From contig JAABSP010000012.1 of assembly GCA_011390345.1 (NCBI GenBank), positions 7,846 through 71,845 of the forward strand: a stretch of DNA of 64,000 nt, read 5' to 3'. Shown in pieces: positions 3,180 through 22,831 of this stretch. A model generated the notes under the pieces. The model had not been told where the DNA came from. It saw nothing but the letters and a program-made list of their open reading frames with translations, and ran no database searches. How positions within the stretch are numbered: position 1 is the stretch's first letter; each line of letters starts with the position of its first letter. The DNA comes from Desulfobacteraceae bacterium (GTDB lineage: Bacteria; Desulfobacterota; Desulfobacteria; Desulfobacterales; JAABSP01). Made by a program: the position numbers and the translations under genes.

Positions 3180-4925
3180 ATGAAGATACCCGAAAGATGC
3201 ATCCTCAAACCCAGAGATGTCCGCAAGACCTATTCCCATGACCAGGACAAGATCATCCCGCCCCATGAGACCCTGACCCGGTTCCGGGAGCGTCTGGCAG
3301 GTCTCGAACTCGACATCCTGCAGGAGACAGAGCGGATCGACAACGGACGGCTGGACATCCCGGTCTATTTCAGCACATGCGGAAAAGACGCGGCAGCCGC
3401 CACCGGAACCCGGAAGCAGATGGGGAAAGGGGCCGCGCCCGGGCAGGCCGAGGCGAGCGCGGTCATGGAGCTGGCAGAGCGCTTCAGCTTCTTCACTTTT
3501 TTGGGGAATCCTGAGAACTTCATCACGGAGAAGCTGGTCAATATCAAAGAAGATGCACTCCCTTTTTCCGAGATCGCACAGTCGGTACATGACACCTCTC
3601 GGGATCTGGAGAAGGCGCAGCAGGTCTTTGAAAACCTCTCCCTCCGGTGGACCTGGGGGTATGATCTTGGGGCGGAAAAGCCGGTACTCATCCCATTTGA
3701 CTGGTTCTACGCCATCAATGAATTCAACGGCCCCTCTGCCGGAAACTGCATGGAGGAGGCGATGGTGCAGGGGATCTGCGAGGTGGTGGAGCGCCATGTC
3801 TGCGCGATCGCCAGCCGAAACCGGCTGACCCTGCCGGCCATCCGCCCCGAATCGGCCACTGACCCTGCGGTGATGGAGATGCTGGAGAAGTATAAAAGAG
3901 CGGGGATCGAGGTCTTTCTCTCCGATTTCACGATGGATATGGGCATCCCCACCGTCGGGGTGCTCGCGTATGATCCGGAGACCTTTCCGGAGAAGAGCGA
4001 GATGGTCTGGACCGCGGGAACCGCACCCGATCCCCAGAAGGCATTGAGCCGGGCCCTCACCGAGACCGCACAGCTCGCGGGGGACTTCAACTCCGGAACC
4101 AGCTATGTGGCCAGCGGCCTTCCCAAGCTGACCAGCCTCTCCGAGGCGCACTTTCTCACCCACCCTGAAACTCATGTGGCGATCACGGATCTGCCGGATA
4201 TTTCAGATCAGAATCTGAAGACGGAGATCGAACGGGCTGTCTCCTGCATCTGCCAAAGGGGAATGCGGGTCTACTGCGTCAATACGACCCATCCGGAGCT
4301 TCAGATCCCCGCGCTCTACACCATCATTCCGGGGGCACGATTCCGGGAGCGGACCCAGGGGACGGGCGTCGGCATGTTTATGGCAAAGCTGATCGCGGAA
4401 AACCATCCGCCCCAAGAGGCTCTGGAGAAGATCAAAGAGATGGAGGGGGTGATGGGGAGGAAATACTACACTCGATTTCAGGCCGGCCTATCGACTCTCA
4501 ACATGGGAAAGCCGAGAGAGGCGCTCTTCATCTTCGAGGAGGCCATCGCGCTCGATCCGACCCTCCAGGATCTGGTGAGCATCTACTCATATATGGGCGT
4601 CGGATTGAAAGAGATGGAAGCCTATAAAAAGGCTCTGATCGTTCTGAAGAAGGGGGCTGCCATCGACAGCGGCCGCACCGACATCCACAACCTCATAGGC
4701 TTCTGCAACTTCAAGCTGAAGAACCACAAGGCCGCGATCCAAGCCTTCGAGAAGGTGCTGGCCATCGATCCGGGATCGGCCATCGACTATGCCAACATCG
4801 CAACCAACTATCGGGAGCTGGGGGACAGAGACAGCGCCATCGAATACTACCTCAAAGCCTTGACAATCGACCCTTCCATCGAATTTGCAAGGGAAAATCT
4901 GGACAAACTCCGGACGGGGAAGTAG
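3180..4925 (+). CDS. YcaO-domain protein fused to C-terminal TPR repeats
   Basis: The YcaO core signature is present: GTRKQMGKGAAPGQAEASAVMELAERFSFF, then ...SAGNCMEEAMVQGICEVVERH...GIPTVGV. The C-terminal ~170 aa are TPR-like (ALFIFEEAIALDP..., AIQAFEKVLAIDP..., AIEYYLKALTIDP...). Confidence 0.9.
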   Translation: MKIPERCILKPRDVRKTYSHDQDKIIPPHETLTRFRERLAGLELDILQETERIDNGRLDIPVYFSTCGKDAAAATGTRKQMGKGAAPGQAEASAVMELAERFSFFTFLGNPENFITEKLVNIKEDALPFSEIAQSVHDTSRDLEKAQQVFENLSLRWTWGYDLGAEKPVLIPFDWFYAINEFNGPSAGNCMEEAMVQGICEVVERHVCAIASRNRLTLPAIRPESATDPAVMEMLEKYKRAGIEVFLSDFTMDMGIPTVGVLAYDPETFPEKSEMVWTAGTAPDPQKALSRALTETAQLAGDFNSGTSYVASGLPKLTSLSEAHFLTHPETHVAITDLPDISDQNLKTEIERAVSCICQRGMRVYCVNTTHPELQIPALYTIIPGARFRERTQGTGVGMFMAKLIAENHPPQEALEKIKEMEGVMGRKYYTRFQAGLSTLNMGKPREALFIFEEAIALDPTLQDLVSIYSYMGVGLKEMEAYKKALIVLKKGAAIDSGRTDIHNLIGFCNFKLKNHKAAIQAFEKVLAIDPGSAIDYANIATNYRELGDRDSAIEYYLKALTIDPSIEFARENLDKLRTGK

Positions 4926-5194: not shown

Positions 5195-7546
5195 TCATAC
5201 AGACGCCTCGGCCCGATTGCGGGCCGAGGCATCGCTCTTTTCGGCCTCTTCTGCCAGCGCCGCTTTCAGCTCTTCGATCTGCTTTTCAATGGCCGCGCCC
5301 CTCTCCCCGATCTCCTTCAACGCCTTCGGGTCAGCCCCTTTCTTTTTGGGCCCCTGGTTTCCCACCAGGTCGGCAATAGCGGCCAAATCGGCCTCATATC
5401 CGCCGAACCGTTCCACCAGCTCCCGGTTGAGGTGATCTGACGCGCCGTGGGCCAGCTTGAAGAGGTACTGATACTTGAGGTTCTCCCGGTAATCCTTGAA
5501 ATGAAACCTGATAGATCCCAGCGCCTCTGCCCGCAATCGGGTCACTCCGTCCTTCAATGCCCGGATCTGTGTTCCGCCGTCCCCTTCCCGCCCGAAGAGC
5601 TTTTTGATAAGCCTGCCCAGGGAATAGACCCCGAAACGGATCACGGCCTCGGTCTTGATCCGGGCGCTGTAGCGCATCGCGGCCCTTGCCGGGGGCAGCT
5701 TGATCTTTTTCGTCTGCCGGATCCTGTCCATGTCCGGATTTTCGATGCTTCTGCCGTTGCGGCCGATTCCGGAGATCCCGAAGCCTTCCAAAGAGCGGTT
5801 GTATTCGTCCAGCGCATCGGCCAGCATCACATCATAGGGGCCCGTCACCGATTCGAAAAAGGAGAGGATCTTCTGCTCTTCGGCCTTGATGAACCGGATG
5901 ATCTCCGGGTTGACGGTCTCGGCCATGTAGCCGTCCACCGATCGCTTGAACTCCTGAAAGATCCGGTACATCTCCCTGGAGATCCGTTTTTTCCTTCCGG
6001 CCTCATCCTTCTTCTCGCCCTTGGGAGCCGGTGCAGAAGCGGGATAGGTGACGGGGCAGTTTTCCACGAACCGAAACAGATCCGGGAGAATGCTTTTGCG
6101 TCCGACCGGGTCGAAAAACCGATCCGCATCGGTCTTCAACTCTCCCTTGAGGCGCTGGGCCGCGCCGTCCAGGGTAGAGCGGATCATGGAACGGATTCCG
6201 GCCATCTTCTCCTGGTGGAACCGGATTTTTTGGACGATCTTCTCCCCCCCCTCGGGCCGCTGCTCGGACAGCTCCCGGGCCACCCGGACCTGGTGACCCG
6301 CGGCCGCGGCAATTGCCGACAGCTTTTCGAGCCCGTTTTTGAAGATCAGATGGTTCCGCTTCTCCGTCAGATGGTACCGGAAATCGGCAAGGAAGTTGTT
6401 TCTCCCCGCTCTGGAATAATCGGTAAGATCCGGCTCCTTCTCCCAGGCTTCGACGCGGCCCTGCTCCTTTTCGGAAAGAGAGGAACCCTCAGCCATAAAG
6501 AGATGGTGGAGCGCGGAAAAGGCATGGAGGGCCGGATCGGGAATGATCCTTCCGATCTCCGATTCGATCCTTTCGATCAAAGGGGTCAGCTCCGAAAGTC
6601 CGGGATGCTCATCCAGGTCGATATTGACAACAAAGAGGATCTGCTCCCCCATCCCCATCCGGCGCAGCATGTTCAGAAACCGGATGTCGGCCTGGCGCAG
6701 TCCTGTGCGGCTGCTGACCACATAGACGATCAGATGAGCCCCGGCAAGATAGTCCTGGATCATGGCCATGTGCCACGGGTTGGGAGAGTCGCTCCCCTGG
6801 CAGTCCGCGACCTCGGTGTTTTCATCCAGCAGATCCGCGTCGATGGTCAGTGAGAGATCGGAAAGATAGACCGCCAGCCGGTCATCGCCGGAAAACCGCT
6901 GGTGCTGGGGAAAGTCCCCGGCCTTATAGGTCTTGACCAGACTCTCCTTTTCCGCCAGAATCCCCGAGACTTCCGGATATCCCAGCAGAAAGGTCTCCAG
7001 CAGAACCGTGTCCGGGTTCCGTGTATCCTCTTCGATCCACTGTTCCGGCTTCAATGAGTGCAGCGCCGATGCAACGGCCTCCCGGTGATCCTCCTTCCGG
7101 ATATCGAATTCCGTCTCCTCCCACTGCCGGTCCGGAAAGAGGGTGAGTGCCCGCTGCATCTCCCCATTGACCTCCTCCCAGGATTTGAAGGTGAGCTGCG
7201 CGGTGAGCTTTTCCCCCTTTCGGATCCGGGTGACTATGGAGGTGACCACCCCGGCCCCCCGCTTGAGATAGTCCCTGCCCATGAGAGCATTGACAAAGGT
7301 ACTCTTTCCCGATTTGATGGGACCCACCACAGCGGTATGAACCGTGGAGAATTCATCGGGCTTCCGAACCTGTCGGCAGATCCCCTTCCATCGCTCTATA
7401 GGTTCGCCGTCGATCTTCAGCGCACTCTCCATCCGATCCAGCAGGGAGAGAAGCTCCCCCCCCACATCAAAAAGATCCTCCCGTTCAAAGCGGTCTTTTT
7501 CCACTTTCCTTCCTTGTTCCCCGTCCGATTCTATGCTATAGTTCAT
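5195..7546 (-). CDS. bacterial dynamin-like GTPase (BDLP/DynA family)
   Basis: G1 P-loop VVGPIKSGKSTFVNALMG. The dynamin-type G domain continues with DCQG...D and ...VVNIDLD (the NKxD-equivalent region). A long helical stalk makes up the rest of the 783 aa. Confidence 0.85.
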   Translation of the reverse strand: MNYSIESDGEQGRKVEKDRFEREDLFDVGGELLSLLDRMESALKIDGEPIERWKGICRQVRKPDEFSTVHTAVVGPIKSGKSTFVNALMGRDYLKRGAGVVTSIVTRIRKGEKLTAQLTFKSWEEVNGEMQRALTLFPDRQWEETEFDIRKEDHREAVASALHSLKPEQWIEEDTRNPDTVLLETFLLGYPEVSGILAEKESLVKTYKAGDFPQHQRFSGDDRLAVYLSDLSLTIDADLLDENTEVADCQGSDSPNPWHMAMIQDYLAGAHLIVYVVSSRTGLRQADIRFLNMLRRMGMGEQILFVVNIDLDEHPGLSELTPLIERIESEIGRIIPDPALHAFSALHHLFMAEGSSLSEKEQGRVEAWEKEPDLTDYSRAGRNNFLADFRYHLTEKRNHLIFKNGLEKLSAIAAAAGHQVRVARELSEQRPEGGEKIVQKIRFHQEKMAGIRSMIRSTLDGAAQRLKGELKTDADRFFDPVGRKSILPDLFRFVENCPVTYPASAPAPKGEKKDEAGRKKRISREMYRIFQEFKRSVDGYMAETVNPEIIRFIKAEEQKILSFFESVTGPYDVMLADALDEYNRSLEGFGISGIGRNGRSIENPDMDRIRQTKKIKLPPARAAMRYSARIKTEAVIRFGVYSLGRLIKKLFGREGDGGTQIRALKDGVTRLRAEALGSIRFHFKDYRENLKYQYLFKLAHGASDHLNRELVERFGGYEADLAAIADLVGNQGPKKKGADPKALKEIGERGAAIEKQIEELKAALAEEAEKSDASARNRAEASV
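5205..5230. terminator. GC-rich hairpin between convergent copZ-like and dynamin-like genes (possible bidirectional terminator)
   Basis: GCCTCGGCCC-gattgc-GGGCCGAGGC forms a 10-bp perfect stem. On the plus strand it is followed by atcgctctttt. It overlaps the last codons of the dynamin-like ORF. Confidence 0.4.
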
Positions 7547-10726: not shown

Positions 10727-11110
10727 TCAAACCAGATGAACGTCATACTGCCTGATCAATTCATCATTCGTGATGATGATCATATTTTCAGCAACTGCCT
10801 GGGCGATCAGTATCCGATCAAAGGGGTCTTTATGATGCATGGGTAGTTTGAACACCGTCAGCGCATGTTCGGTTGTAATATCCAGAGACTGGATATCGTT
10901 CAAGACAAGTTGTTTCCGAACGAAGTCAACAACCGACTCCGGAAGGATCAATTTTCCGATCTGAGCTTTTATGGCCATTTCCCATGCGCTGGCGGCGCTC
11001 AAAAACAGGTTTTCGTCTGTTTCGCCCAGCAGCAGCCGGGTTTCTTTATCCAATTTCGGATTGTCCAGAACCCACCACAGGAAGATATGAGTATCCAAGA
11101 GATAGCTCAT
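10727..11110 (-). CDS. vapC: type II toxin VapC (PIN domain ribonuclease)
   Basis: YLLDTHIFLWW...SAASAWEMAIK...DPFDRILIAQA...IITND contains the PIN acidic residues. It overlaps the upstream antitoxin gene by 4 nt. Confidence 0.9.
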   Translation of the reverse strand: MSYLLDTHIFLWWVLDNPKLDKETRLLLGETDENLFLSAASAWEMAIKAQIGKLILPESVVDFVRKQLVLNDIQSLDITTEHALTVFKLPMHHKDPFDRILIAQAVAENMIIITNDELIRQYDVHLV

Positions 11111-11355
11111 TTATAGAATTCCGCCAGCATCTCATCATCCAGGGGCTCTTCAAAATCATCCGCCATCCAGATCATTCCCTTTGCTGAACCGGGCTTCCGC
11201 TTTTTCTTAACGCTTTTTTTCCTGTCTTCATCCGATTCGACCAAAACAATGATTTCAACGTCTTTTCCGATCATCGTTTTCGGTATCGGCAAATTCAGGA
11301 CTTCCGAATCAATATGTGCTTTGATTTTTAGCGCTTCCATATTAAAATTCTCCAA
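11107..11355 (-). CDS. type II antitoxin (DUF2281-like) paired with VapC
   Basis: 82 aa with the C-terminal motif WMADDFEEPLDDEMLAEFY typical of DUF2281 antitoxins. It is translationally coupled to vapC. GC content is locally lower. Confidence 0.7.
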   Translation of the reverse strand: MENFNMEALKIKAHIDSEVLNLPIPKTMIGKDVEIIVLVESDEDRKKSVKKKRKPGSAKGMIWMADDFEEPLDDEMLAEFYK

Positions 11356-11415: not shown

Positions 11416-12939
11416 TCAGAGGCCGATAAAAGAGCGCACCGTGATGATCGGCTTCCGCAGGATCTGCATTCCCAGGATGGTGGAATCGCCGTAGATCTTG
11501 GCAGATCCCTTCTGCCCCGGCTGCACTTCGGGCGGATCTCCCACCCAGACTGCCTCGGCCATCACCGACGGGATCTGATCTTCGGAAACCATAACATCGA
11601 AACCGAGACGGGTGATCACCGCGGGAATGGTCCGGAGCGGATCGCTGTCGAGCCGTACCCCCACCCGGGCCCCCTCCTTTAAAAAGCCGACATCACTGGC
11701 CGGGACCATGATCCGTACCTTGGTCTTATCCGGTTCCGCAACGCTCATAACAGCCTGTCCGGTCTGCAGGGCCGCGCCGATGATGGCATCGGGATCATCC
11801 AGTACGATGACCCCGGGATTTACGGTCTTTACCTCGGCCCGGGCCCGCTGACGGGCAAAAAACTCCACATCGGCCTCGGCCCGTTCCACTTCGAGCCGCT
11901 GGACCGGCAACTCTGCCCGGGCCTCCCGATCCCGATGCGCCGCACCCTCCAGTTTGGCCAGCTTTGCACGGGCAACCGCCACATTTCGATACGCCTCGTC
12001 CAGGCGCTTGTCCAACACCCGGGCATCATACCGGAAGAGCACGGTATCCTTTGCCACCCGCTGCCCCGGCTGCACCAGAAGCTCCTTCAGGATGCCGTCC
12101 ATGGGCGCGAAGATGTAATGGGGCCGATCCGGAACCGCGCGCAGAGGCGCGGTGACGCTGGAGGTGACCGGAAGCGCCAGCACCAGCAGCAGAACAAGGC
12201 CGGCCACAGATCGAATGATCCGCTTCCGGGAGCGGAGAGCCGCGCTTCTGGGCCGTGCCAATCCATGCCCCATGAAGAGCGCGGCATGGCGCAGCAGCTC
12301 CACATCGAGGCTGTCATCCCAGCGAAGCCCTCGCCATCGCTCCAGCCAGAGCGCATAAGCGGGCGGAATCTTTCCGTCCCTGTCGAGCCAGAGGGGAAGC
12401 CAGAGGATACCGGTCCCGCCCATGGCCGACTGAACTTTCTGGATCGGACCCTCCTGAGCCGGAGGGAGAATCATCGGCTCCTGCCGGTCTCCGTAGGCAT
12501 CCCGGGCCGCATCGATGGCATCGGCAAAACCACTGTCCTGAGCGGCCTGTCCCCCGCCTGTGACGGCCGCGATGGGCGACTTTCCGGAAAGGCGGACCAG
12601 CACGGCTCGATCGACCCGGGTGATCTCGGCCACCCGGTTGACCACAAGGGCCGCAGCCTCCTGAGGCATCGGCGCGGAGAGGATCGAGGTGCAGACCCTG
12701 AGAAAGCGCGCCAGCACCATATCACTGCCGGCGGGCCGGGCCCTGGGCGGCTGTTGCTGTTCCCCGCTGTTTCCGGCCCCGGGCGGCAGCGGCTGTTCTC
12801 CTCTGTTCCAGGCTCCCGTCGGCTGGGGCTTCGAAATCCCCTTTCCCGGGTCCTGCGGCTGTTCCGCGCCGTTCAGAGATCCATTCAGGTTCCGTGCCGC
12901 GCTCGAATCGAATCCGATTTTAGCCCCGGGTTTAGCCAT
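11416..12939 (-). CDS. HlyD-family membrane-fusion protein with ~230-aa cytoplasmic GAF-like N-terminal domain
   Basis: A Pro/Gln-rich disordered start is followed by a GAF-like block (LARFLRVCTSILSAPMPQEAAALVVNRVAEITRVDRAVLVRL...). A single TM follows (IIRSVAGLVLLLVLALPV). Next come lipoyl, coiled-coil and beta-barrel HlyD features (PMDGILKELLVQPGQRVAKDTVLFRYD...). The ATG overlaps the stop of the upstream HlyD gene. Confidence 0.8.
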   Translation of the reverse strand: MAKPGAKIGFDSSAARNLNGSLNGAEQPQDPGKGISKPQPTGAWNRGEQPLPPGAGNSGEQQQPPRARPAGSDMVLARFLRVCTSILSAPMPQEAAALVVNRVAEITRVDRAVLVRLSGKSPIAAVTGGGQAAQDSGFADAIDAARDAYGDRQEPMILPPAQEGPIQKVQSAMGGTGILWLPLWLDRDGKIPPAYALWLERWRGLRWDDSLDVELLRHAALFMGHGLARPRSAALRSRKRIIRSVAGLVLLLVLALPVTSSVTAPLRAVPDRPHYIFAPMDGILKELLVQPGQRVAKDTVLFRYDARVLDKRLDEAYRNVAVARAKLAKLEGAAHRDREARAELPVQRLEVERAEADVEFFARQRARAEVKTVNPGVIVLDDPDAIIGAALQTGQAVMSVAEPDKTKVRIMVPASDVGFLKEGARVGVRLDSDPLRTIPAVITRLGFDVMVSEDQIPSVMAEAVWVGDPPEVQPGQKGSAKIYGDSTILGMQILRKPIITVRSFIGL

Positions 12940-13726
12940 TGATCCGCACCTCCCCCTTCATCCCCGGCAGGAGTTCATTCCCCGGAGATTCCAGGGTCCA
13001 GATCACCTGAGCCGTATTGCTCAATTCATCCACTTCAGGGACCACCGCATCCACAATTCCGGCGATCGTCGCATCCAGATCATTGACATAGAAGCTGTGG
13101 CGATCCCCCTTTTTCAACTGCACCGCCAGCCAGGAGGGGATATTGCCCACTGCCCGAATCCGGGTCGGCGAGATGAGATCGACCACGGGCTGGCCAATGG
13201 TCACCCACTCATGGGGTTGAACATGACGCCGGACCACAACCCCGTCAAAGGGGGCATAGATCAACGAGTTCCCGATCTGGCGCTTTAAAATCTCGATATC
13301 GGTCCGCACCACATCCCGCTGCATCCGAACCTCAGCCAGATCCTCGTTGGTGGCAAGCCCCTTCTGATTTAGCCGCTCCAGATTGCTCACCTTCACATTG
13401 AGATGCCGCAGGGAGAGTTCGCTCCGCTTCTTCTGCAGCGCCAGCTCCCCGGTATCCACCTGCGCGATGAGGTTTCCCTTTTTAATCGGGCTTCCGGCCT
13501 CGTATTTCAGGCTGGTCAGCACCCCGGCCCGCTCCGCGGAGAGAACGGCCCGATCCAAGGCCTCGAAGATGACCGGAAAGGCATCCCCGCCAGAGGATGC
13601 CGAATAGCCCTCCTGAAAGACCCCTTCCGGAATATTCCCGGACTGTGCCAAGACCCTTTCCGGCATCATGCCGGCGCAAAGAGAAGCCGCCAGTCCCACC
13701 GCAACAACCGCGAGACAGAAGCGCAT
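12932..13726 (-). CDS. HlyD / RND-adaptor-type periplasmic membrane-fusion protein
   Basis: MRFCLAVVAVGLAASLCAGMM is a signal or anchor. Further features are ...GSPIKKGNLIAQVD..coiled coil..IYAPFDGVVVRRHVQPHEWVTIGQPVVDLI. I chose the start at 13726. The track start at 13867 overlaps the upstream gene by 115 nt. Confidence 0.8.
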   Translation of the reverse strand: MRFCLAVVAVGLAASLCAGMMPERVLAQSGNIPEGVFQEGYSASSGGDAFPVIFEALDRAVLSAERAGVLTSLKYEAGSPIKKGNLIAQVDTGELALQKKRSELSLRHLNVKVSNLERLNQKGLATNEDLAEVRMQRDVVRTDIEILKRQIGNSLIYAPFDGVVVRRHVQPHEWVTIGQPVVDLISPTRIRAVGNIPSWLAVQLKKGDRHSFYVNDLDATIAGIVDAVVPEVDELSNTAQVIWTLESPGNELLPGMKGEVRING

Positions 13727-13752
13727 CCATCCATATCCAACAATCCTGTCGA

Positions 13753-15960
13753 TCAAAACAGTCCTCTTTCCGTCAGATGTTTCCAAATAGTTTCGATGGC
13801 CCCTGTCAGAATGGGGCGGCTCTCCCGGGGGAGCCAGATCCAGCCGGGCATGCCGTGGGGCAGCCATTTGGGGCTCCGGTCCACCTCGAAAAGAAATGTG
13901 AAGTAGGCATCCTTGGGCCGAAGGCCCCGGGTGTCTGAAACGGAGATCATAGACCCGCCGGCCGCGTCGAGGAGGCTCTCATTGGGCAGATAATAGACCG
14001 GAAAGAGGCTTTTCTCCCGGAGCCGGCCGGTGATGGCCGGCGCCTTGGACGCGCCAAAGCGGATCTTTGCCGACTCCCCCACTGCCGCAGATACGCCCTG
14101 AACCAGCCGCTCGTGCACATAGGCCCGCACCTCCCGAACCTCCGGATCGGCAACGGTGAAAAGATAGGTTTCCCTGTTGACATAGGCGTTCTTGTAGAGA
14201 TCCGGGTTGACATCGGTGATGCGGCCATCTGCAGGCGAACGGATCTCCAGAAGGCTCTGGGCCTGGGTCAGCTTCTCCAGCACGGCCATCAGACGATTCT
14301 CCTCCTCCAGCAGCCAGTTCCGGTAGGCTCCCTGCTCTCCCCCGCCGCCAAGACTCTGGAGTGTGGCCCGCACCGAAGCCAGATCGAATCTCGCCCCCTC
14401 CACCTCATGGCGCAGGGTTCCGCTCTGAATCCGGATGATGAGGTCGCCTTTTCGCACCGACTTTCCCGGTTCCGGCAGCGACATAACGATCCTTCCGGCC
14501 GAGGGCGCATCGAGTCGGTTGGCGCCCTCGTAGAGGAGCAGGCTTGGCAGGTGAGTGTATCGGGGCAGCGGAATCAGAAGCAACAGGATCAGGGTCAGCA
14601 GAACTCCGCCTGTGATTGCTGCTCTTTTCCGGGAACCGATCTTTTTCCGCTCCCGCACCACCGATTTGATCTCGAAATAGAGTGGCCGGATAAAAAAGAT
14701 CCAGATCTCCACCCCCAGGATGAGAAGCCCCAGCGCGGGAAAGAAGAGATAATAGACCGCAATGGCGATGGCAAGGCCGATGAAGAGCCGATAGAGCAGC
14801 GCCAAAAACCCATAGAAGATCATCCAGTTCCGATTCGGATGGATCTCCGGGGCAGGTTCTTTCCATCCCAGCAGGCGCTGCCGGGTCCAGTGGCGCAGCA
14901 TGGCAAATGCCCGGGGTCTGAGATTGTCGATCCCCCATGCGTCCATGAGCAGATAATAGCCGTCGTAGCGCATGAACGGGTTGAGATTGATGAATACCGA
15001 TGAGACCAGGGAAGTGCCGGAGAGAAAGAACATGAGGCTTTTCAGGATGCCGTCCGGCAGCAGTGCCCAGTAGAGAAGCGCGAGCCCCGCGACCACCAGT
15101 TCGAAGAGTACCCCGGCAGCGCTGATCCACATCCGGCGTCTCCGGTCCGGGATCTTCCACGCATCGGTGGTGTCGGTGTAGAGCAGGGGCCAGAGTACGA
15201 TAAAGAAGATCCCCATGCTCGGCACATGGAGGCCCATTGCTTTTGCCGTATAGGCGTGCGCGAACTCGTGTCCGATCTTCAGGGTCACAAGGCAGAGAAT
15301 AAAGGCAAATGCGCCCTGTGGAGTGAAGAGGTAGTTGATGGTCCCCAGATAGAGTTCGATCTCCGGCAGGGTCAGGGCAAGGCCCAGTATTCCGCAGATC
15401 AGGTAGAACCATCGGGCCGCGGGGGACCAAAGGGGCTTCACCCAGGGAAGGGTCTTTGCGAGAAAGCGGTCTGGCCGGATAAGCGGAACCTGAAAGAAGA
15501 TGGTCCCCTGGAGGATCTTCCGCAGAAAAGGGGGCGCTGTCCCCTCCCCTGCCGACTCCCGCCTGACCGCCTCGTCCGGCGGTATCCGGGCAAGAGACTC
15601 CCGCTGCAGCATCCCGATGAAGGAGAGGATCTCCTGTGGAGTGGGCCGAAGACCCGTGGTGGTGTAGAGGTTGGCCGCGGCCTTGTCCAGATCCGGCTCC
15701 ACCGAGAGGCGGTAGATCAGCTCCCCCTCCACGAATCCCAGCCGGAAATTGTTCCCTCTCACCGGGTCTTCCAGCACCCAGGAGCGCTGGCCGTCATGTT
15801 CGATTGGGCCCGGGTGGAGGATCAGATCGGGCCGAAGCCCATACCACGGGGTTTTTAAAAAATCCTTTAAGCTGTTGCCGCCATTCTGATCCGGTTTCAG
15901 GTTCTGCTGCGAATCCGGGGCTGTATTGGCCGCATTCGGCTGTCGGTTCTGCTCTTCCAT
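13753..15960 (-). CDS. peptidase M50 (site-2-protease-like) membrane domain fused to a C-terminal HlyD-type membrane-fusion domain
   Basis: The HExxH motif sits in a TM helix (LKIGHEFAHAYTAKAMG) and multiple TM helices follow. The motif NLNPFMRYDGYYLLMD is also present. The C-terminal ~270 aa are HlyD-like (GDLIIRIQS..., coiled coil, ...IRSPADGRITDVN...). The N-terminal ~190 aa are soluble. Confidence 0.85.
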   Translation of the reverse strand: MEEQNRQPNAANTAPDSQQNLKPDQNGGNSLKDFLKTPWYGLRPDLILHPGPIEHDGQRSWVLEDPVRGNNFRLGFVEGELIYRLSVEPDLDKAAANLYTTTGLRPTPQEILSFIGMLQRESLARIPPDEAVRRESAGEGTAPPFLRKILQGTIFFQVPLIRPDRFLAKTLPWVKPLWSPAARWFYLICGILGLALTLPEIELYLGTINYLFTPQGAFAFILCLVTLKIGHEFAHAYTAKAMGLHVPSMGIFFIVLWPLLYTDTTDAWKIPDRRRRMWISAAGVLFELVVAGLALLYWALLPDGILKSLMFFLSGTSLVSSVFINLNPFMRYDGYYLLMDAWGIDNLRPRAFAMLRHWTRQRLLGWKEPAPEIHPNRNWMIFYGFLALLYRLFIGLAIAIAVYYLFFPALGLLILGVEIWIFFIRPLYFEIKSVVRERKKIGSRKRAAITGGVLLTLILLLLIPLPRYTHLPSLLLYEGANRLDAPSAGRIVMSLPEPGKSVRKGDLIIRIQSGTLRHEVEGARFDLASVRATLQSLGGGGEQGAYRNWLLEEENRLMAVLEKLTQAQSLLEIRSPADGRITDVNPDLYKNAYVNRETYLFTVADPEVREVRAYVHERLVQGVSAAVGESAKIRFGASKAPAITGRLREKSLFPVYYLPNESLLDAAGGSMISVSDTRGLRPKDAYFTFLFEVDRSPKWLPHGMPGWIWLPRESRPILTGAIETIWKHLTERGLF

Positions 15961-16077: not shown

Positions 16078-19000
16078 TCAGCAATCAGAGGGATCTCCGC
16101 CGTCCGGTCTCCAGCGGCCCGGGCGCTTATCGGCCTGGTCCGGGCTCAGAAAGACCTCCGCAAAACCGCCGGGGCCCACATCATTGAAGCCCTGGGCTCC
16201 CTGCATGGAGAGCTGGGAATAGACATCATGCTCCTCATCCCGGTTATGCTTGGCAAACGCCTCTTCCTCGGCAGCGCCGAAGGCTTCGGCAAATTCACCG
16301 GGCCGGTGACAGAAGCCCGGGTCTCCCTCCTCCCGCATAAAGAGCTGGTGGAAGAGATCGAACTCAGTGAAGCAGAAGGGCTCGATTTTGGAGACAAAAG
16401 GATCATCCCATCCAAGAGTTCCCTCGAGGTAATCCCAGGTGATGTTGCAGAGCCTTGCCTCGGGATCATAGGCCGGAGCAAGGCGGCATCCGATCTTCAG
16501 GGCCTCTTCCAGGGTGCAGCACTCGTAGAGCTGCTCGTTGCCGCAGGGACCTGCCATCAGAGCGCGGAAGACCTCCATCGGGCCGCCGGTATCGAGTACA
16601 TCGCCGGGGAAGGGGATTGCGCCGAGTTCCAGCCCCTGGAGGCCGCTGTAGCCGGGGCGGGCGATGGGCTCCAGCATCAGTTCCTGAGCCGGAGGTCCTT
16701 CATAGGGAGGTCTTGCCGGAGGACGATTGCCCACAAACAACGTAATAGTATCGGTGTCGGTCATGGGGCCGCCCTCGCCGGTATGGCCCAAATCATTGGT
16801 CGTCATCGTCAAATGGGCTTCTCCGCGGAAGGCCTCACCAGGATTGTACCGCACCTGGGCAAGGGCTTCGTTGATCTCCGGAACCGTTCCCTCGATCACT
16901 ACCTGTGCGGTCCCGTTCCCGGTCACCGTGACCGCCTCTGTATCATTCACCGTGACGCTGCTGTTATCTGCGGTCAGCGTAACCCGAATGTCATCATAGA
17001 CCACATTTCCGGCATCATTATAATGGTAGGCGTCCACATCCTTAACAGATATCCGGTTCCCATTGGCATCGCTAAAGACGACTGTCGCATCCTGCGGGGT
17101 GATGAGGGTATCCGGAAAATCAGCGGTACCGGAATAGAGGTTGATGGGCGCGTCATTGACCGGCGTCACCCGGATGATCCCGTCGCCGGTTTCGCTTGTG
17201 GAGCCGCGGTCATCGGTAATCTGTATCGTGTAGTTCCGATTTGCGGGATTGGGGTTCTCAGACGGATTGAAGAAGCGGACGCTTTCCACTGCAGATTCGT
17301 AATTGGCCACCGAATCCACCCCTGTAAAGTTGAGGATTCCGGCGCTCTCATCATAGGATACGGTGATCCCCGTACCGGCAATGGTCATTCCGTCCGTTAT
17401 GGGGCTGTCTCCGATCCGCAAATCGTCGTTCGGCTTGAGGTCCGTGAAATGGATGGAGAGAGAGGAAAGATTCTCGCTGTCCGGATCATTGATGGAAAAG
17501 TCGTCCTCCACAATGGAAATCGGTGCATCGCCCTCCCGGAATTCCACTTCGGCCGGGCCCGGCCGTTCCGGAGGCTGGTTGCGGTCAATATCAATGGTCA
17601 TCTGATAGTCCGACTCGCTCAGCTTCGGCTCAACGGCCTGCGGCGCATGGGCGGCGTCGTCCTGAACCTTGAATCGGAAGGTATCATAGTTATCCGCAAA
17701 GAAGATATCCTCACTCATGGTATAGACCAACTGGCCGTTCCGGATGGCATCGGTGGAAATCAGGGTATCTGCCGTCACCGTTTCACCGTTGAGGGTAAGC
17801 GTACCCTGATCCGGAAGATCGGTGATCTGAACAGCCTTGAAGTTGTCCCCTTCCATGTCATCGAATTCGAAATCGCCCATATTGAAGGTATAGGTCATAT
17901 CCTCAGTCACGCTCACCTCTCCGTCCGCACTGGTGGGAGGGTCGTTGACCGGCGTTACGATGATCGGCATCAGATAGGCGTCTGCGCTGTATTTGACTCC
18001 GTTATTGACCCGGAACTGAAAATCGGCATATTCGAACTCGTTTATAGGATGGTTTCCATCGCCGTAAGCATCCGCATTCGGTTTAAACTTCAGTTGACCA
18101 TTTTCAATCTGCTCCCGGGAGATTTTGTCAAAGAGATTGACATCCTCGCCGTTGAGCAGCAGGGTTCCGGCCGAAGCGGTCTTAGTGATCCAGAGTTCCT
18201 GGAGATCATTGCCATCGAAATCCTTATATTTGAAATCATCCAGCTTGAAGGTGTATTCGGTATCCTCCTCGATTGAGACCGGGTCCGCAGGCCCCTGAGG
18301 CCGCTGGTTCACCGGGGCCACATCGATGGTCATGGTGTAGTCCGAATGGCTGTATTCAGTGCCGTCATGGACTTCAAACCGAAAGCTCGAATAATCATCT
18401 CCATGCTCATATTCAACCGGAATAAAGACCAGATCACCGTCCATGATATCCTCTGCCGAGATCTCGGTTCCTTCGGTGACCGCGACGCCGTTCAGCAGCA
18501 GAGAAGCACCATCTTTAATGGACAGATCGGTGATCTGCACCTTGGCCATGCTGTCTGTGAGATCCACATCGTTGAAGATGAAATCCTGCAGTTGGAAACG
18601 ATATCCAGGATCGAAGGTCTCCGGATCGACCTCCAGTGCGGTGACGGTGTTGTCGATGGAGGTCGGGGCATCCTGCACCGGAGTCACATCCATGGTCATG
18701 GTGTTGCCGTTGAGGCTGTATGCGGTCCCGTCATGGACTTTAAAGCGGAAGGTCGCGTAATCATCGCCGTAGGCATCCTTGTTCGGAACAAAAACCAGAT
18801 CCCCCTCGTCGATGGCCGCGATGTCAATCTCCTGATTGAGGGCCACCTCCTGGCCATCGAGCAGCAGCTCCCCTGCGGTCTCGAGCTGTGTGATCCTGAT
18901 CTGGGTGAAGGTTCCACCGTCCGGATCACTGAAGCCGAAATCCTCCCGGGTAAAGATATGCTGTGTATCCTCAGCAATGACCACGGTCTCGTTAGTTCCC

Positions 19001-20673
19001 GAAGGGGGGATGTTGCCCACGGTCACATTGATATTCATATTGTATGCGGACTGGCTGTAGGCCGTGCCGTCGGAAACCTGGAATCCAAAATTGGCATATC
19101 CATTGCCGCTGGCATCGGAGGCCGGGGCAAAGAGCAGATTTCCGGCTTCGATCTGATCGACATCGATCTCCTGGTTGAGGGAAACGGCCTGGCCGTTGAG
19201 CAACAGATCTCCCGCTGCCTCCAGCCGGGTGATCTTCACGGTCTGAAAGGAATCCCCCTCATCCACATCGTTGAAGGAGAAGTCGGAGATCTTGAAAGTA
19301 TAATCGGTGTTCTGGCCTGTGGTTACGGTGTTGTCCGCAGAGGTGGGCGGATCATTGACCGGTGTGACATTCATCACCAGGGTATAAGCCGACTGGCTGA
19401 AGGACGTTCCGTCGCTGACCTTGAACCGGAAATTGGAATATGCCGCGCCGTTGGCGTCCGCATCCGGAACAAAGATGAATTCTCCGGCCTCGATCTGAGC
19501 CCGGGTGATCTGCTCGTTGACATTCACCTCACGGCCATTGAGCATCAGGGTACCGGCCGTCTCCAACTGGTTGATCTGAACAGACTGCAGGCTGTCTCCG
19601 GTATCCGGGTCGGTGAACCCGAAGTCGTCCACCTTGAAGGTGTAGGGGGTATCCTCCTGCAGGGTGACGGCCTGATCCGATGCCTTGGGCAGATCGTTGA
19701 CCGGATTGACATCCACCGTCATACGATAGGCATCGGCACTGAATTCCTTACCATCGGAAACCTTGAAGCCGAAGCCGGAATACCCCGCGCCGTTTGCATC
19801 CGTTGCCGGAACAAAGATCAGCCGCCGGGCCACGATATCCTCCACCGCAATCACATCGCCGGCCCCGACGGCCTCTCCGTTGAACTGCAGCGTACCCGCA
19901 GGATCGATATCGGTAATTTGGACCGCCTGCAGCGTATCGCCGCTGTTTACATCCACATCATTGAAGAGAAAATCGTTCCGCTCAAAGACGTAGCTGGTAT
20001 CCTCGTCAGTCACTACGGTATTGTCCAGCGCTGTGGGGGCATCCTGGACCGGCGTCACATCGATGACCATGTTTGCAGCCGTAACGCTGTATGCCGTGCC
20101 ATCATGCACCTTGAACCGAAAGTCGGAATAAGGGCTTCCATTTGCATTTTGATTGGGCACGAAGGTGAGATTCCCGGCCTGGATATCCGTGGCCGAAATC
20201 TCATCATAGAGCCCTACCTCCTGCCCGTTGAGCAGAAGGGAACCGGCCGACTCCAGCTTGGTGATCTGGATCTTGAGGAGAGGGTCGCCTTCCGGATCGG
20301 TGTAGGCACTCTCGAAATCGGCAAGGCTGAATGTATGAGTCCCATCCTCGCTCATTGTAACCGTTCCATCCCCAGTACTCGGAGCCGCTCTCATCACCGG
20401 GCCGTCCGCAGCCTCGGGCCCATCCGCAGGGAGGTCGCCATCTGCCGAAACCCCGTCAGAGATCTGGGTGTCCGGATCGCTCAGCAGTGCGGCCGCACCG
20501 GCCGCGGCATCTGCGGAAAATGAAATGTGCTCCGCGCCTGCCATGTTATCCGGGACCGCAGACCCGTCCGGAACCTGTGCGTCATCATGATCATCGACCG
20601 CATGATCGATCACATGTGCCACAGCAGCTCCGTCGAGGACGATCCTGCGTTCCAGTTTCATCAGGTTCAACAT
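16078..20673 (-). CDS. 1531-aa acidic secreted repeat protein (cadherin-like/Ig-like tandem repeats; N-terminal LEPR-XLL-like motif; Cys-rich C-terminal domain)
   Basis: A strong RBS, AAGGGAGGTGA, precedes the ATG. The N-terminus is MLNLMKLERRIVLDGAAV. Eight repeats of about 113-122 aa are each closed by a V(T/N)PV(N/Q)DxP junction. Each carries the pattern xEDTxYTFxxxDFxFxDxDxGDxLxxVQITxLxxxGxLxLNG...F.P..N..G...F.FKV.DG. Two divergent modules and a 155-aa tail with 8 Cys follow. Confidence 0.9.
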   Translation of the reverse strand: MLNLMKLERRIVLDGAAVAHVIDHAVDDHDDAQVPDGSAVPDNMAGAEHISFSADAAAGAAALLSDPDTQISDGVSADGDLPADGPEAADGPVMRAAPSTGDGTVTMSEDGTHTFSLADFESAYTDPEGDPLLKIQITKLESAGSLLLNGQEVGLYDEISATDIQAGNLTFVPNQNANGSPYSDFRFKVHDGTAYSVTAANMVIDVTPVQDAPTALDNTVVTDEDTSYVFERNDFLFNDVDVNSGDTLQAVQITDIDPAGTLQFNGEAVGAGDVIAVEDIVARRLIFVPATDANGAGYSGFGFKVSDGKEFSADAYRMTVDVNPVNDLPKASDQAVTLQEDTPYTFKVDDFGFTDPDTGDSLQSVQINQLETAGTLMLNGREVNVNEQITRAQIEAGEFIFVPDADANGAAYSNFRFKVSDGTSFSQSAYTLVMNVTPVNDPPTSADNTVTTGQNTDYTFKISDFSFNDVDEGDSFQTVKITRLEAAGDLLLNGQAVSLNQEIDVDQIEAGNLLFAPASDASGNGYANFGFQVSDGTAYSQSAYNMNINVTVGNIPPSGTNETVVIAEDTQHIFTREDFGFSDPDGGTFTQIRITQLETAGELLLDGQEVALNQEIDIAAIDEGDLVFVPNKDAYGDDYATFRFKVHDGTAYSLNGNTMTMDVTPVQDAPTSIDNTVTALEVDPETFDPGYRFQLQDFIFNDVDLTDSMAKVQITDLSIKDGASLLLNGVAVTEGTEISAEDIMDGDLVFIPVEYEHGDDYSSFRFEVHDGTEYSHSDYTMTIDVAPVNQRPQGPADPVSIEEDTEYTFKLDDFKYKDFDGNDLQELWITKTASAGTLLLNGEDVNLFDKISREQIENGQLKFKPNADAYGDGNHPINEFEYADFQFRVNNGVKYSADAYLMPIIVTPVNDPPTSADGEVSVTEDMTYTFNMGDFEFDDMEGDNFKAVQITDLPDQGTLTLNGETVTADTLISTDAIRNGQLVYTMSEDIFFADNYDTFRFKVQDDAAHAPQAVEPKLSESDYQMTIDIDRNQPPERPGPAEVEFREGDAPISIVEDDFSINDPDSENLSSLSIHFTDLKPNDDLRIGDSPITDGMTIAGTGITVSYDESAGILNFTGVDSVANYESAVESVRFFNPSENPNPANRNYTIQITDDRGSTSETGDGIIRVTPVNDAPINLYSGTADFPDTLITPQDATVVFSDANGNRISVKDVDAYHYNDAGNVVYDDIRVTLTADNSSVTVNDTEAVTVTGNGTAQVVIEGTVPEINEALAQVRYNPGEAFRGEAHLTMTTNDLGHTGEGGPMTDTDTITLFVGNRPPARPPYEGPPAQELMLEPIARPGYSGLQGLELGAIPFPGDVLDTGGPMEVFRALMAGPCGNEQLYECCTLEEALKIGCRLAPAYDPEARLCNITWDYLEGTLGWDDPFVSKIEPFCFTEFDLFHQLFMREEGDPGFCHRPGEFAEAFGAAEEEAFAKHNRDEEHDVYSQLSMQGAQGFNDVGPGGFAEVFLSPDQADKRPGRWRPDGGDPSDC
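17575..20373 (-). repeat. eight in-frame tandem coding repeats (~340-366 nt each) inside the giant gene
   Basis: The protein junction motifs fall at about aa 211, 327, 441, 556, 669, 791, 911 and 1033, counted by hand from the track translation. Confidence 0.8.
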
Positions 20674-20755: not shown

Positions 20756-22831
20756 TTACCAGTGATTACTCGTCGGCGGGATCACCCAGTACTCCATCCC
20801 GTTTTGTTTCAGATTCTGGGCAAGCTGCTTGGCTTCGGGCTCAGTCAATCCCATCAACCGCACCCGGTTGTAGAGCTTTCCGTTGAGGTTTTTGGTGCTG
20901 ACCCGGGCATCCCGGTTATCTGCCAGCCGCAGTTCCAGATCCTTGATCTGGTCGATCCGCTTGGCCGGCCCTCCGGCCTTGGTGAAAGAGCCCATCTGCA
21001 CCTTCCAGAGAAAACGGTCAGATGCTGCGTTGGACCAACCCCTGGAGGCCGAATAGTCATCTTCGTAGGTTGAAGTATCTGACCAGGGATCGACCGCTCC
21101 GCCGGTTCCGCCCGCTACTCCCCCTGTTCCACCCACCCCTCCGCCGGCAGGGGGTACTGTCCCGGCTCCGGCATCGGTGAAGCCCGCATCTTCGGCCGGA
21201 TATCCGCTTCCGCTGCCATAGGGAGAAGCGCCGCCCAGATCCATGGTGTCGATCTCCGAACCCGAACCGGCTGCGTAATTATCCGCGGCCATATTTGCCA
21301 GCTCTCCGGAGGCGAGGTCATACCCGACGCCTGAAACATCGCCGCTGCCCAGCAGAATGCTCGTGTCGCAGTCCTGGGGAAACATGCCGATGCTGACACA
21401 GAGACGTTTGTGCGCCACCATCATATCGACAACAGCCTCGTCCCTTCTCAGCTTTGCCGCCATCTCCTCCAGATAGCGCTGGGTGACGGCCAGCTCCGGC
21501 AGGCGGCCGGCACTGTTTTTGGCCTTGGCCATATCCAGAAGATTCTCGGCAAGCTGAAAGGTCTCTTCCAGCAGCCGGAACCGGTCCACCTTGATGGCAT
21601 AATCGAGAAGCGAGATATGCACCTGGGTGATGACGCCGACGGTCATCATCAGCCGCTCCACCTCTGCCATATTGACAGTCTTTTTCGTTCCCTGCAGCCT
21701 GGCAATGTTCGAGGGAAGGTCGAGAAGATTCCAGCTCACCCCCGCACCGACGCTGTTCCAGGTGTTGGCATAGAGGAGCCGGTTGTCATCATAATGGGAG
21801 GCCGCAAAGAAGTTGAGTCCCGGAAAGAGGTTCAAAATGGCCGCCTTGGTCTCCTCTTTCTGGATCAGGACCTGGATGTCACGCTGATAGAGTTCGGGGC
21901 GATGCACCAGGGCATACTCCTCCAGAGAGTCGATATCCAGTTCCTTGGTATGGGGAAGCGCCGCGACAATGGGCTTGATGGGCGGTCTGGCCAGGGTGTA
22001 CTGGACGTTCTGATTGAAGCCCATGAGCTGGGAGAGTTCCAGACGGGCCGAGGAGAGATTGGCCTGGAGTTGCCGGACCGTCAGTTCCAGCTCCTTGAGC
22101 CGGAGTTCGGCCTCGGCCGCATCCATCCGGTCCAGATCTCCAGAGGCCACCGCGCTGTCGATCCGACCTTTGACGATCTTCAGCCGTTTCTCCACCGAAT
22201 GGACATAGTCGAGGGCATCTTCCAGAGCTGCGGCCTGCCAGTAGGCCCCCACGATATCCAGAGCCAACTGCTGGGCCTGCCGGACCCGCTTCTGCTCCAG
22301 AAACTGCTCCCGCATCTCCGAGGCGCCGGAGCGGACATACGCGAGCGCTGTGTCCAGCACGTTCCAAGTGAGGGTCAGGTTGGCCCGGAAGGAATCCTTC
22401 AGCTCCGAAACCGTATAATCCTTCTGATCCTGGTCCAGCCGCCAGTTGTAGACATCGCTCTTCCGGAGCTTGTCCCGATACTCGAACCTGGCATCCGCGA
22501 CCAGACCGGGCAGCATCTGAAGCCGTTTGGCCAGGGTCTCCTTGTCCGCGATCTCCTCATCGAGCTTGGCAATGCGGACTTCCAGGTTATTGCGCAGTCC
22601 GATGCTGATGACATCCTCCAAGGTCAGGGGCTGCTCGAAATTGATATCCATCGGGGGCTTGAGCAGCTCCAGATCGGTCTTAGCCTGCTGCTCCCGTTGA
22701 TCCGCCATTTCGGCATCATTGAGAATCTTGGTGCATCCACCGATAAAAAGGAATATGAATGCGACCCAGAAAAACTTCGTCAATGCTGACCATGACGTGC
22801 TCCTGCCGGAACCCTTTCTCATCTCTAACAT
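20756..22831 (-). CDS. TolC/NodT-type outer-membrane factor lipoprotein fused to a C-terminal SPOR domain
   Basis: The lipobox is FLFIGGC. A two-repeat OEP/TolC-like coiled-coil body occupies about aa 60-500. A Gly-rich linker follows (GGGVGGTGGVAGGTGG). The SPOR-like end is FLWKVQMGSFTKAGGPAKRIDQIKDL...YNRVRLMGLTEPEAKQLAQNLKQNGMEYWV. Confidence 0.85.
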   Translation of the reverse strand: MLEMRKGSGRSTSWSALTKFFWVAFIFLFIGGCTKILNDAEMADQREQQAKTDLELLKPPMDINFEQPLTLEDVISIGLRNNLEVRIAKLDEEIADKETLAKRLQMLPGLVADARFEYRDKLRKSDVYNWRLDQDQKDYTVSELKDSFRANLTLTWNVLDTALAYVRSGASEMREQFLEQKRVRQAQQLALDIVGAYWQAAALEDALDYVHSVEKRLKIVKGRIDSAVASGDLDRMDAAEAELRLKELELTVRQLQANLSSARLELSQLMGFNQNVQYTLARPPIKPIVAALPHTKELDIDSLEEYALVHRPELYQRDIQVLIQKEETKAAILNLFPGLNFFAASHYDDNRLLYANTWNSVGAGVSWNLLDLPSNIARLQGTKKTVNMAEVERLMMTVGVITQVHISLLDYAIKVDRFRLLEETFQLAENLLDMAKAKNSAGRLPELAVTQRYLEEMAAKLRRDEAVVDMMVAHKRLCVSIGMFPQDCDTSILLGSGDVSGVGYDLASGELANMAADNYAAGSGSEIDTMDLGGASPYGSGSGYPAEDAGFTDAGAGTVPPAGGGVGGTGGVAGGTGGAVDPWSDTSTYEDDYSASRGWSNAASDRFLWKVQMGSFTKAGGPAKRIDQIKDLELRLADNRDARVSTKNLNGKLYNRVRLMGLTEPEAKQLAQNLKQNGMEYWVIPPTSNHW

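Follow-up and report, generated by a model that had tools for sequence, protein, structure and literature searches.

A giant cadherin-like repeat protein with an N-terminal leader and a conserved cysteine-containing tail, encoded in a putative export operon of Desulfobacteraceae

The window analysed here is a stretch of 64,000 nucleotides (nt) from a Desulfobacteraceae bacterium (GenBank assembly GCA_011390345.1, contig JAABSP010000012.1, positions 7,846 to 71,845). Its principal subject is an open reading frame (ORF) at 16078..20673 with an ATG start that encodes a protein of 1531 amino acids (aa), hereafter termed the cargo, together with the operon in which this gene resides. An earlier note on this DNA had described the ORF as a giant cargo protein composed of a leader-like N-terminus, eight acidic repeats, two divergent modules, a hinge, and a cysteine-containing tail; the gene is real and occupies these positions, but its strand needs correction to minus. 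The other operon genes, likewise all on the minus strand, encode an outer-membrane factor (OMF), a fusion of an M50 protease with a HlyD-type adaptor (M50-HlyD), and two further HlyD-type adaptors, with Pfam matches to OEP and HlyD_3. The features of the operon, listed from upstream to downstream with the evidence for each in parentheses, are as follows.

20756..22831, minus: TolC-like OMF of 691 aa that combines a lipoprotein-type signal and a Gly-rich linker with a weakly SPOR-like C-terminus (Pfam, NCBIfam)
16078..20673, minus: whole cargo gene, 1531 aa, isoelectric point (pI) ~4.05, no predicted transmembrane (TM) segment (matching gene in independent assemblies)
20584..20673, minus: N-terminal leader of the cargo, aa 1–30, MLNLMKLERRIVLDGAAVAHVIDHA... 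(homologue pattern; resembles the LEPR-XLL motif)
20383..20583, minus: acidic linker, aa 31–97, with a second conserved motif, AAALL.DP, near aa 60 (homologue comparison)
17575..20382, minus: eight tandem cadherin-like repeats of ~115 aa each, aa 98–1033 (Pfam, NCBIfam, BLASTP, hidden Markov model (HMM))
16732..17574, minus: two divergent modules, aa 1034–1314 (no Pfam match; kept upstream of the tail in homologues)
16564..16731, minus: Pro/Gly-rich hinge, aa 1315–1370 (low AlphaFold2 confidence; family-wide spacer)
16081..16563, minus: Cys-containing tail core, aa 1371–1531 (motif conservation, Cys, homologue search)
13753..15960, minus: fusion protein, 735 aa, with a cytoplasmic PqqD-like N-domain resembling RiPP recognition elements (RREs; RiPP, ribosomally synthesized and post-translationally modified peptide), an M50 intramembrane metalloprotease (HEFAH, aa 231), and a periplasmic HlyD adaptor (Pfam, NCBIfam)
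12932..13756, minus: second HlyD-type adaptor, probably 274 aa (Pfam, NCBIfam, relatives)
11416..12939, minus: third HlyD-type adaptor of 507 aa, which has a single TM segment and a long N-terminus in the cytoplasm (Pfam, NCBIfam)

The same 1531-aa cargo gene was recovered with zero or one amino acid substitution from the Logan assemblies DRR846335, DRR846332, and SRR29699989, and neither the gene nor its number of repeats is therefore an assembly artefact. Searches of protein collections did not return the exact cargo protein; they did return its M50-HlyD neighbour (100% identity, on an 81-kb contig). In the closest public metagenome-assembled genome (MAG), Desulfobacteraceae bacterium S20.Bin068, the last 157 cargo residues are present at 100% identity and the neighbouring proteins at 92–99%; the giant gene is missing from the annotation of this MAG because its contig, JAABSZ010000023.1, breaks inside the tail. 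The cargo is strongly acidic, and neither a TM segment nor a Sec-like hydrophobic core was found in it. Cysteines are located at aa 1377, 1385, 1386, 1396, 1409, 1434, 1455, and 1531, and none occurs before 1377. The 22 other long ORFs in the window give a background Cys frequency of 0.94%, at which ~13 cysteines would be expected in the first 1376 aa (0 observed, P ~2e-6). Confinement of all eight to the C-terminal 155 aa, as first described, is thus borne out by residue count, with a chance probability of ~1e-8.

Eight tandem units were delimited by BLASTP and HMM comparison (98–208, 208–324, 324–438, 438–551, 552–665, 665–787, 787–908, and 908–1033), in agreement with the number and the length of ~115 aa previously reported. 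The junctions that had been counted by hand stand to within a few residues, but two of them, at 551 and 1030, lack the strict V(T/N)PV(N/Q)DxP motif attributed to them. Likewise, the acidic motif ascribed to every unit was found in the form D.D..GD in units 2–8, unit 1 not being among them. The Pfam family Cadherin_4 matched eight stretches of the cargo (4.6e-50, 168.5 bits, cutoff 25.1), with further matches to Big_9 (117.4 bits), Cadherin_5 (91.2 bits), and Cadherin_3, and the tandem-95 repeat of NCBIfam (NF012211) scored 133.3 bits (cutoff 90). With multiple tandem domains above curated cutoffs, the cargo belongs to the bacterial cadherin-like repeat proteins, and the cadherin-like nature of its repeats is confirmed. 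The two divergent modules described after the repeats (aa 1034–1314) did not match any Pfam family and recur upstream of the tail in homologues.

The repeat units are 37–54% identical to one another in protein, with a mean of 45%, and 49–65% identical in DNA. If the array had expanded recently, as the nucleotide identity of the repeats was to reveal, repetition should be visible in the DNA; this scenario was ruled out by the DNA identity of 49–65%, by the failure of Tandem Repeats Finder to detect a tandem repeat in the DNA of this region, and by an eight-unit array common to four homologues (P0004, P0008, P0018, and P0021), in which unit count and spacing are as in the window protein. Units 6 and 7 are the longest in P0004, P0008, and the window protein alike. 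Because homologues share the unit count, and because array identity between proteins (44–62%) compares with a mean of 45% between units within the window protein, the array is old and its units are probably positionally orthologous. In the wider family defined by the tail, repeat number does vary, as the earlier note had asked: some members carry 6, 8, or 10 copies of the window-type repeat, and ~60% of full-length members have no such unit and carry other repeat families instead.

The hinge had been described as Pro-rich, and its sequence, NRPPARPPYEGPP, begins at aa 1316. Throughout the family, the tail is preceded by a Pro/Gly-rich spacer (30–45% P+G); measured in 34 members between its P-rich beginning and the invariant Cys, it has a median of 73 aa. 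In the cargo, it spans ~55–70 aa. The tail core that follows contains the motifs C(C)TLEEALRIGCRFAP, LGW..P, LDEE.DLY..LF.RE.GDPGF, and FN..GPGELK.AFF.GRE.LD..GRW and ends with the terminal C; the corresponding motifs in the family alignment are FPG.V, C[ST][LI]EEAL+..GCRFA, LGW..P, LDEE.DLY..LF.RE.GDPGF, and FN..GPGELK.AFF.GRE.LD. Aromatic and acidic residues are abundant in the tail. A k-mer-indexed homologue search with the tail returned 2–3 fragments only, and the family was obtained by an exhaustive phmmer search of 1.84 billion protein representatives, which placed the tail in 36 clusters (E<=1e-10 for 28). The tail is nearly always found at the extreme C-terminus of proteins of 1200–2100 aa that begin with the same leader. 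In a scan of one genome per species, 16 tail loci were identified, all in Desulfobacteraceae/Desulfobacterales and including Desulfonema magnum, D. limicola, and Desulfatirhabdium. Stand-alone or internal copies, which a shuffled module would produce, were not seen among the matches, and the short matches look like gene fragments. In a Desulfonema-type subgroup (loci L012–L016, comprising D. magnum CP061800 and relatives), an acidic extension of 100–130 aa lies beyond the tail and ends in a conserved amphipathic motif, L..LD.VI.SLG.A.K, which may be a separate terminal signal.

These results establish the tail as a distinct C-terminal module, and the inability to assign it to any family was reproduced in every search: Pfam and NCBIfam gave no family at E<=10 for the window tail, Pfam gave no family shared by 24 aligned tails, and a profile search of the PDB with the tail alignment gave zero matches at E<=10. 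Known C-terminal sorting and anchor domains (the C-terminal domain of type IX secretion system (T9SS) cargo, PEP-CTERM, GlyGly-CTERM, LPXTG, etc.) were not matched in Pfam or NCBIfam, and the tail has no TM helix. As judged from these sequence comparisons, the tail is an unannotated domain family lacking a Pfam, NCBIfam, or PDB match.

The pattern of cysteines was then read from 46 non-redundant tails. Two positions are invariant: C1386 and C1396 occur in every tail that covers them. C1377 and C1409 are either both present or both absent, and C1385 is present exactly when there is a Cys near the C-terminus, which is the terminal residue itself or the one in a VIPC motif. These two pairs are separable, as P0010, P0011, and P0016 retain the 1385/terminal pair in the absence of the 1377/1409 pair; the four cysteines concerned are conserved within the window protein's own subclade. 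The window protein is the only one with both C1434 and C1455; P0003 has the first alone and L002 the second alone. Because cysteines are present or absent in pairs, this pattern suggests three disulfides, of which C1386–C1396 would be invariant and C1377–C1409 and C1385–C1531 subclade-specific.

The disulfide-knotted fold that the earlier note envisaged was not recovered by modelling. AlphaFold2 gave a mean predicted local distance difference test score (pLDDT) of 51.8 and a predicted template modelling score (pTM) of 0.18 for aa 1321–1531 (24 sequences), and 54.6 and 0.21, respectively, for aa 1352–1531 (35 sequences). The two runs agree on short helices only (e.g., 1388–1394, 1432–1445, and 1467–1481), pLDDT was <50 in the hinge, and comparison of the tail model with the PDB by Foldseek yielded noise only (best E 7.8). 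That note had held that a tail poorly conserved or disordered in orthologs, or non-conserved cysteines, would argue against a folded disulfide domain; the tail proved to be conserved across the 36 clusters, two of the eight cysteines proved to be invariant family-wide, and neither objection holds outright. Shallow alignments of 24–35 sequences are a sufficient reason for the low pLDDT, and a folded domain is plausible. Alternatively, the tail could be largely disordered and acidic with short conserved helical motifs, its cysteines being free, metal-binding, or used for covalent attachment. The low confidence and short helices of both AlphaFold2 runs would fit this picture, as would the presence of just two invariant cysteines, the highly acidic composition, and a sulfidic, anoxic habitat (judged from taxonomy). 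We nevertheless consider it quite improbable, as motifs are strongly conserved over ~160 aa, including many aromatic and hydrophobic positions, the pairwise co-occurrence of cysteines fits disulfide partners better than independent ligands, and the depth of the alignments already suffices for low pLDDT.

At the other end of the cargo, the leader-like N-terminus that had been proposed proved to be a conserved leader, as all full-length tail homologues begin with ML.L.KLE.RIVLDGAA. Related forms are present in the cargos of two Gammaproteobacteria MAGs (MVKL[IV]KHEKRIVLDGG) and of the betaproteobacterium Massilia (LALESRVVFDGAA), such that all three distant-cargo N-termini that were read carry the same type of leader. 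Against the LEPR-XLL model (NF012209), the window leader scored 12 bits (E 0.12), below the curated cutoff of 17 bits; of six other leaders, three scored 12.5–15.2 bits and three were not matched. DUF4347 directly follows the leader in most tail homologues and in all distant cargos examined. In homologues such as P0003, P0004, and P0010, this block (aa ~70–230) contains the conserved motifs ..LSHG..G.F.LG.. and ..I.FGC.., which we take to resemble the His-Cys dyad of caspase/CHAT-like proteins. Pfam did not match PF14252 (DUF4347) in the window protein, whose repeats start at aa 98, and the entire block is missing from the window protein, P0005, P0018, and P0036.

The genomic context of the tail was constant. 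In every tail locus with flanks, the order OMF, cargo, M50-HlyD, HlyD, HlyD is kept. An ABC (ATP-binding cassette) transporter gene was found neither in this operon nor in its counterparts at the 16 homologous loci, and a motif scan did not detect a pair of Walker A and LSGGQ motifs anywhere in the window; an ABC gene could still lie elsewhere, unlinked to the operon. In the one gap between cargo and M50-HlyD that was inspected, that of locus L013, there are toxin–antitoxin-like genes, a dehydratase, and masked repeats, and no ABC transporter. The signal of the OMF (..FLFIGGC) is predicted to be that of a lipoprotein. Its C-terminal ~200 aa (20756–21350, minus) resemble SPOR, a peptidoglycan-binding-type domain, at 19.6 bits, which is below the cutoff of 21; this extension is kept in all Desulfobacterales loci, and that of the gammaproteobacterial OMF is a different one, ~215 aa long. 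For the second HlyD gene, the 311-aa ORF (12932–13867, minus) shares 115 nt with the end of the M50-HlyD gene and the 274-aa form (12932–13756) 4 nt; judged from the genes called on identical contigs and from where homology begins in relatives, the product is probably 274 aa and the 311-aa ORF is likely over-extended.

The M50-HlyD protein has >300 homologues. The best NCBIfam matches of its M50 domain are to daptide_HExxH (6.1e-46, below cutoff) and YydH/LiaK, which are metalloproteases of RiPP maturation. When a profile of the N-domain (aa ~30–130; 15571–15873, minus) was compared with the PDB, the top three matches were the lasso-peptide RREs TfuB1, 9x90_B, and TbiB1 (E 0.12–0.66), and Pfam PqqD is matched by 2 of 18 M50-HlyD family members (best 1.4e-5). 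The assignment of this domain as an RRE/PqqD-like leader-recognition element is weak but coherent, and it suggests that one protein unites a leader receptor, a leader protease, and a periplasmic adaptor.

Five more distant M50-HlyD loci were examined (L017 and L019–L022), from two Gammaproteobacteria MAGs, Massilia sp. W12, a metagenome contig, and a paralogous Desulfococcaceae system. Each of them encodes a DUF4347 giant, up to about 5000 aa long, next to or near M50-HlyD; the distant cargos are DUF4347 giants of 2500–5200 aa, and none of the cargos at these loci carries the Cys tail. The ABC-less operon, composed of OMF, leader-bearing giant, M50-HlyD, HlyD, and HlyD, was identified in Desulfobacterales, the two Gammaproteobacteria MAGs, and metagenome contig L021, and in Massilia (Betaproteobacteria) only M50-HlyD near a DUF4347 giant was seen. 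As judged from these comparisons, it is the leader that accompanies the export machinery from phylum to phylum, and the tail is an addition specific to Desulfobacterales. Because related systems do without it, the tail is not required by the export machinery in general, and the idea that it serves the whole system as its secretion signal was rejected. A narrower function in secretion could still be considered, in which the tail is an extracellular folding nucleus or ratchet against back-sliding, or a recognition or chaperone-docking segment that offsets the missing ATPase. A folding-driven ratchet is attractive given that the operon encodes no ATPase. In addition, C-terminal capping structures drive the secretion of RTX (repeats-in-toxin) proteins such as CyaA, and the tail is conserved along with the operon in all 16 loci. 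However, homologous exporters (34–48% identity) serve tail-less cargos, and an exporter feature specific to tail-bearing systems was not found; we therefore rate a secretion-coupled tail as rather unlikely.

Leader and tail are constant in the family while the passenger between them is swapped, as seen from the ~60% of full-length members that lack the window-type repeat. Constant ends with a variable middle are also known from LapA-type adhesins, autotransporters, and T9SS cargo, and this arrangement favours a role of the tail tied to the export machinery or to anchoring. We tentatively favour a reading, to which we would give somewhat less than an even chance, in which the cargo is a leader-dependent exported adhesin and the conserved tail its cell-proximal stopper or anchor. 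We infer that the operon exports the cargo with the N-terminus leading. The RRE-like domain would bind the leader in the cytoplasm, and the M50 domain would perhaps cleave it. The unfolded, Cys-free passenger would then thread the conduit formed by adaptor and TolC-like protein, and the cadherin-like units would fold outside the cell, likely in a Ca-dependent manner. The tail would exit the cytoplasm last, become oxidised, and act as a cell-proximal stopper or anchor while the Pro/Gly spacer threads the outer-membrane channel; at ~70 aa, the spacer would be long enough to span a TolC-type tunnel. Such a stopper would be an analogue of the LapA retention module with reversed polarity.

If export instead proceeded C-terminus first, as is classical for TolC/HlyD-type conduits of the type I secretion system (T1SS), the tail would be a distal head, i.e., a small disulfide-stabilised domain at the tip of the stalk that is lectin-like or serves in cell–cell recognition or as a toxin. 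The tail is lineage-specific, as a niche-specific ligand binder could be, its richness in aromatic and acidic residues would suit such a function, and the conserved amphipathic end motif of the Desulfonema-type extension is a possible secretion signal. On the other hand, heads usually diversify on constant stalks, whereas here the tail is constant and the passenger is exchanged, the element conserved system-wide is the N-terminal leader rather than the C-terminus, and no similarity of the tail to any lectin or toxin family was found. We regard a distal head as unlikely.

Several observations weigh against the leader-dependent adhesin with a C-terminal stopper. The operon encodes no energy source in the form of an ATPase. 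The RRE assignment is weak, with PDB E-values of 0.12–0.66, and the window M50-HlyD itself is not matched by Pfam PqqD. Cysteine co-occurrence comes from perhaps 2–3 independent evolutionary events, and part of it may reflect clade structure; 2 of the 8 cysteines alone are invariant across the family, and disulfides may be unstable in sulfidic habitats. With AlphaFold2 values of 52–55 (pLDDT) and 0.18–0.21 (pTM), the tail is not established as a folded domain. Finally, the Cys tail is absent from the gamma- and betaproteobacterial cargos and from the paralogous Desulfococcaceae cargo, and comparison of the OMF C-terminus and the adaptor N-termini did not identify an operon partner that co-varies with the tail.

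Compared with the T1SS adhesins LapA, MpIBP, and SiiE, the cargo is similarly giant, very acidic, and Cys-poor, lacks a Sec signal, and consists of tandem Ig/cadherin-like repeats with acidic motifs that are likely Ca-binding. TolC-like and HlyD-like genes are adjacent in both cases, and conserved terminal modules surround a variable middle. A retention module with a linker that plugs the OMF, as in LapA, is also the model proposed here for the tail. In contrast to these adhesins, the cargo operon lacks an ABC transporter gene, the cargo lacks the RTX motif GGxGxD (zero matches to GG.G.D), a conserved N-terminal leader stands where those adhesins have their N-terminal retention module, and of the three HlyD-type proteins one is joined to an M50 protease. 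A retention module, if the tail is one, would here be C-terminal and Cys-containing. Pfam gave no LapA-family match for the window protein; the search for LapG and LapD genes was confined to the operon. Of the classical T1SS adhesin features, adjacent HlyD- and TolC-type genes are thus present, and an ABC gene in the operon and RTX repeats are absent. With an M50 protease–HlyD fusion instead, the system is not a classic T1SS, the retained adhesins of which the earlier note had named as one parallel for the tail.

The cargo shares with LEPR-XLL (NF012209) and DUF4347 (PF14252) giants an L-E-x-R-x-V-L-D sequence at the extreme N-terminus of a very large repeat protein, and it differs from them in scoring below the NF012209 cutoff (12 vs 17 bits) and in lacking DUF4347. 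Recognition of an N-terminal leader by the exporter would be similar to RiPP leader machinery, in which a PqqD-like RRE and an M50 protease occur (daptide MpaP-type, YydH/LiaK), and to bacteriocin exporters with a fused leader peptidase. Unlike in RiPP systems, the substrate is a structural protein of 1531 aa (elsewhere up to ~5000 aa) rather than a short peptide, the fusion partner of the protease is a periplasmic adaptor instead of an ABC transporter, and the operon contains no modification enzymes. The literature that was searched yielded nothing relevant for the M50-HlyD/TolC combination, LEPR-XLL, DUF4347, or Desulfonema cadherin, and no account of an association among M50-HlyD, leader, and giant cargo; LEPR-XLL and DUF4347 are mentioned in just five papers, a single time in each and in neither title nor abstract. 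The operon, which lacks an ABC gene, could represent an undescribed and widespread export route for giant leader-bearing proteins, comprising an RRE-like receptor, an M50 protease, three HlyD proteins, and a TolC-like protein possibly anchored by SPOR. The tail would then be a new disulfide-locked retention domain, specific to Desulfobacterales, that keeps the adhesin in the outer-membrane channel as a mirror image of LapA; we consider this combined proposal doubtful.

Other genes in the window encode a YcaO cyclodehydratase fused to TPR repeats (3180–4925, plus), a dynamin-family GTPase of 783 aa (5195–7546, minus), and, directly after the end of the export operon, a PIN-domain toxin preceded by a small ORF (10727–11355, minus). 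A DUF6079 protein of 1251 aa (38861–42616, plus; 2.7e-291, AAA-type) is encoded ~650 nt ahead of a fusion protein of 1605 aa with an unusual architecture (43261–48078, plus), in which a DSHCT helicase-associated domain is joined to an M1 aminopeptidase and an ERAP1-like C-domain. This pair may be part of a defence island.

The usual explanation for giant repeat adhesins is the classical T1SS, with its ABC transporter, C-terminal signal, and RTX repeats, none of which fits the cargo and its relatives. In these proteins, from Desulfobacterota, Gammaproteobacteria, and Betaproteobacteria, a strictly conserved leader is instead encoded beside a protease–adaptor fusion with a putative RiPP-like leader-binding domain. 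If the proposed route is correct, it would account for the exit of DUF4347/LEPR-XLL-type giants from the cell, and the tail would provide a second case of adhesin retention, with reversed polarity. The operon as a whole may merit more attention than the tail. The cargo and its homologues are candidate cell–cell or cell–surface adhesins of environmental sulfate reducers, including filamentous Desulfonema.

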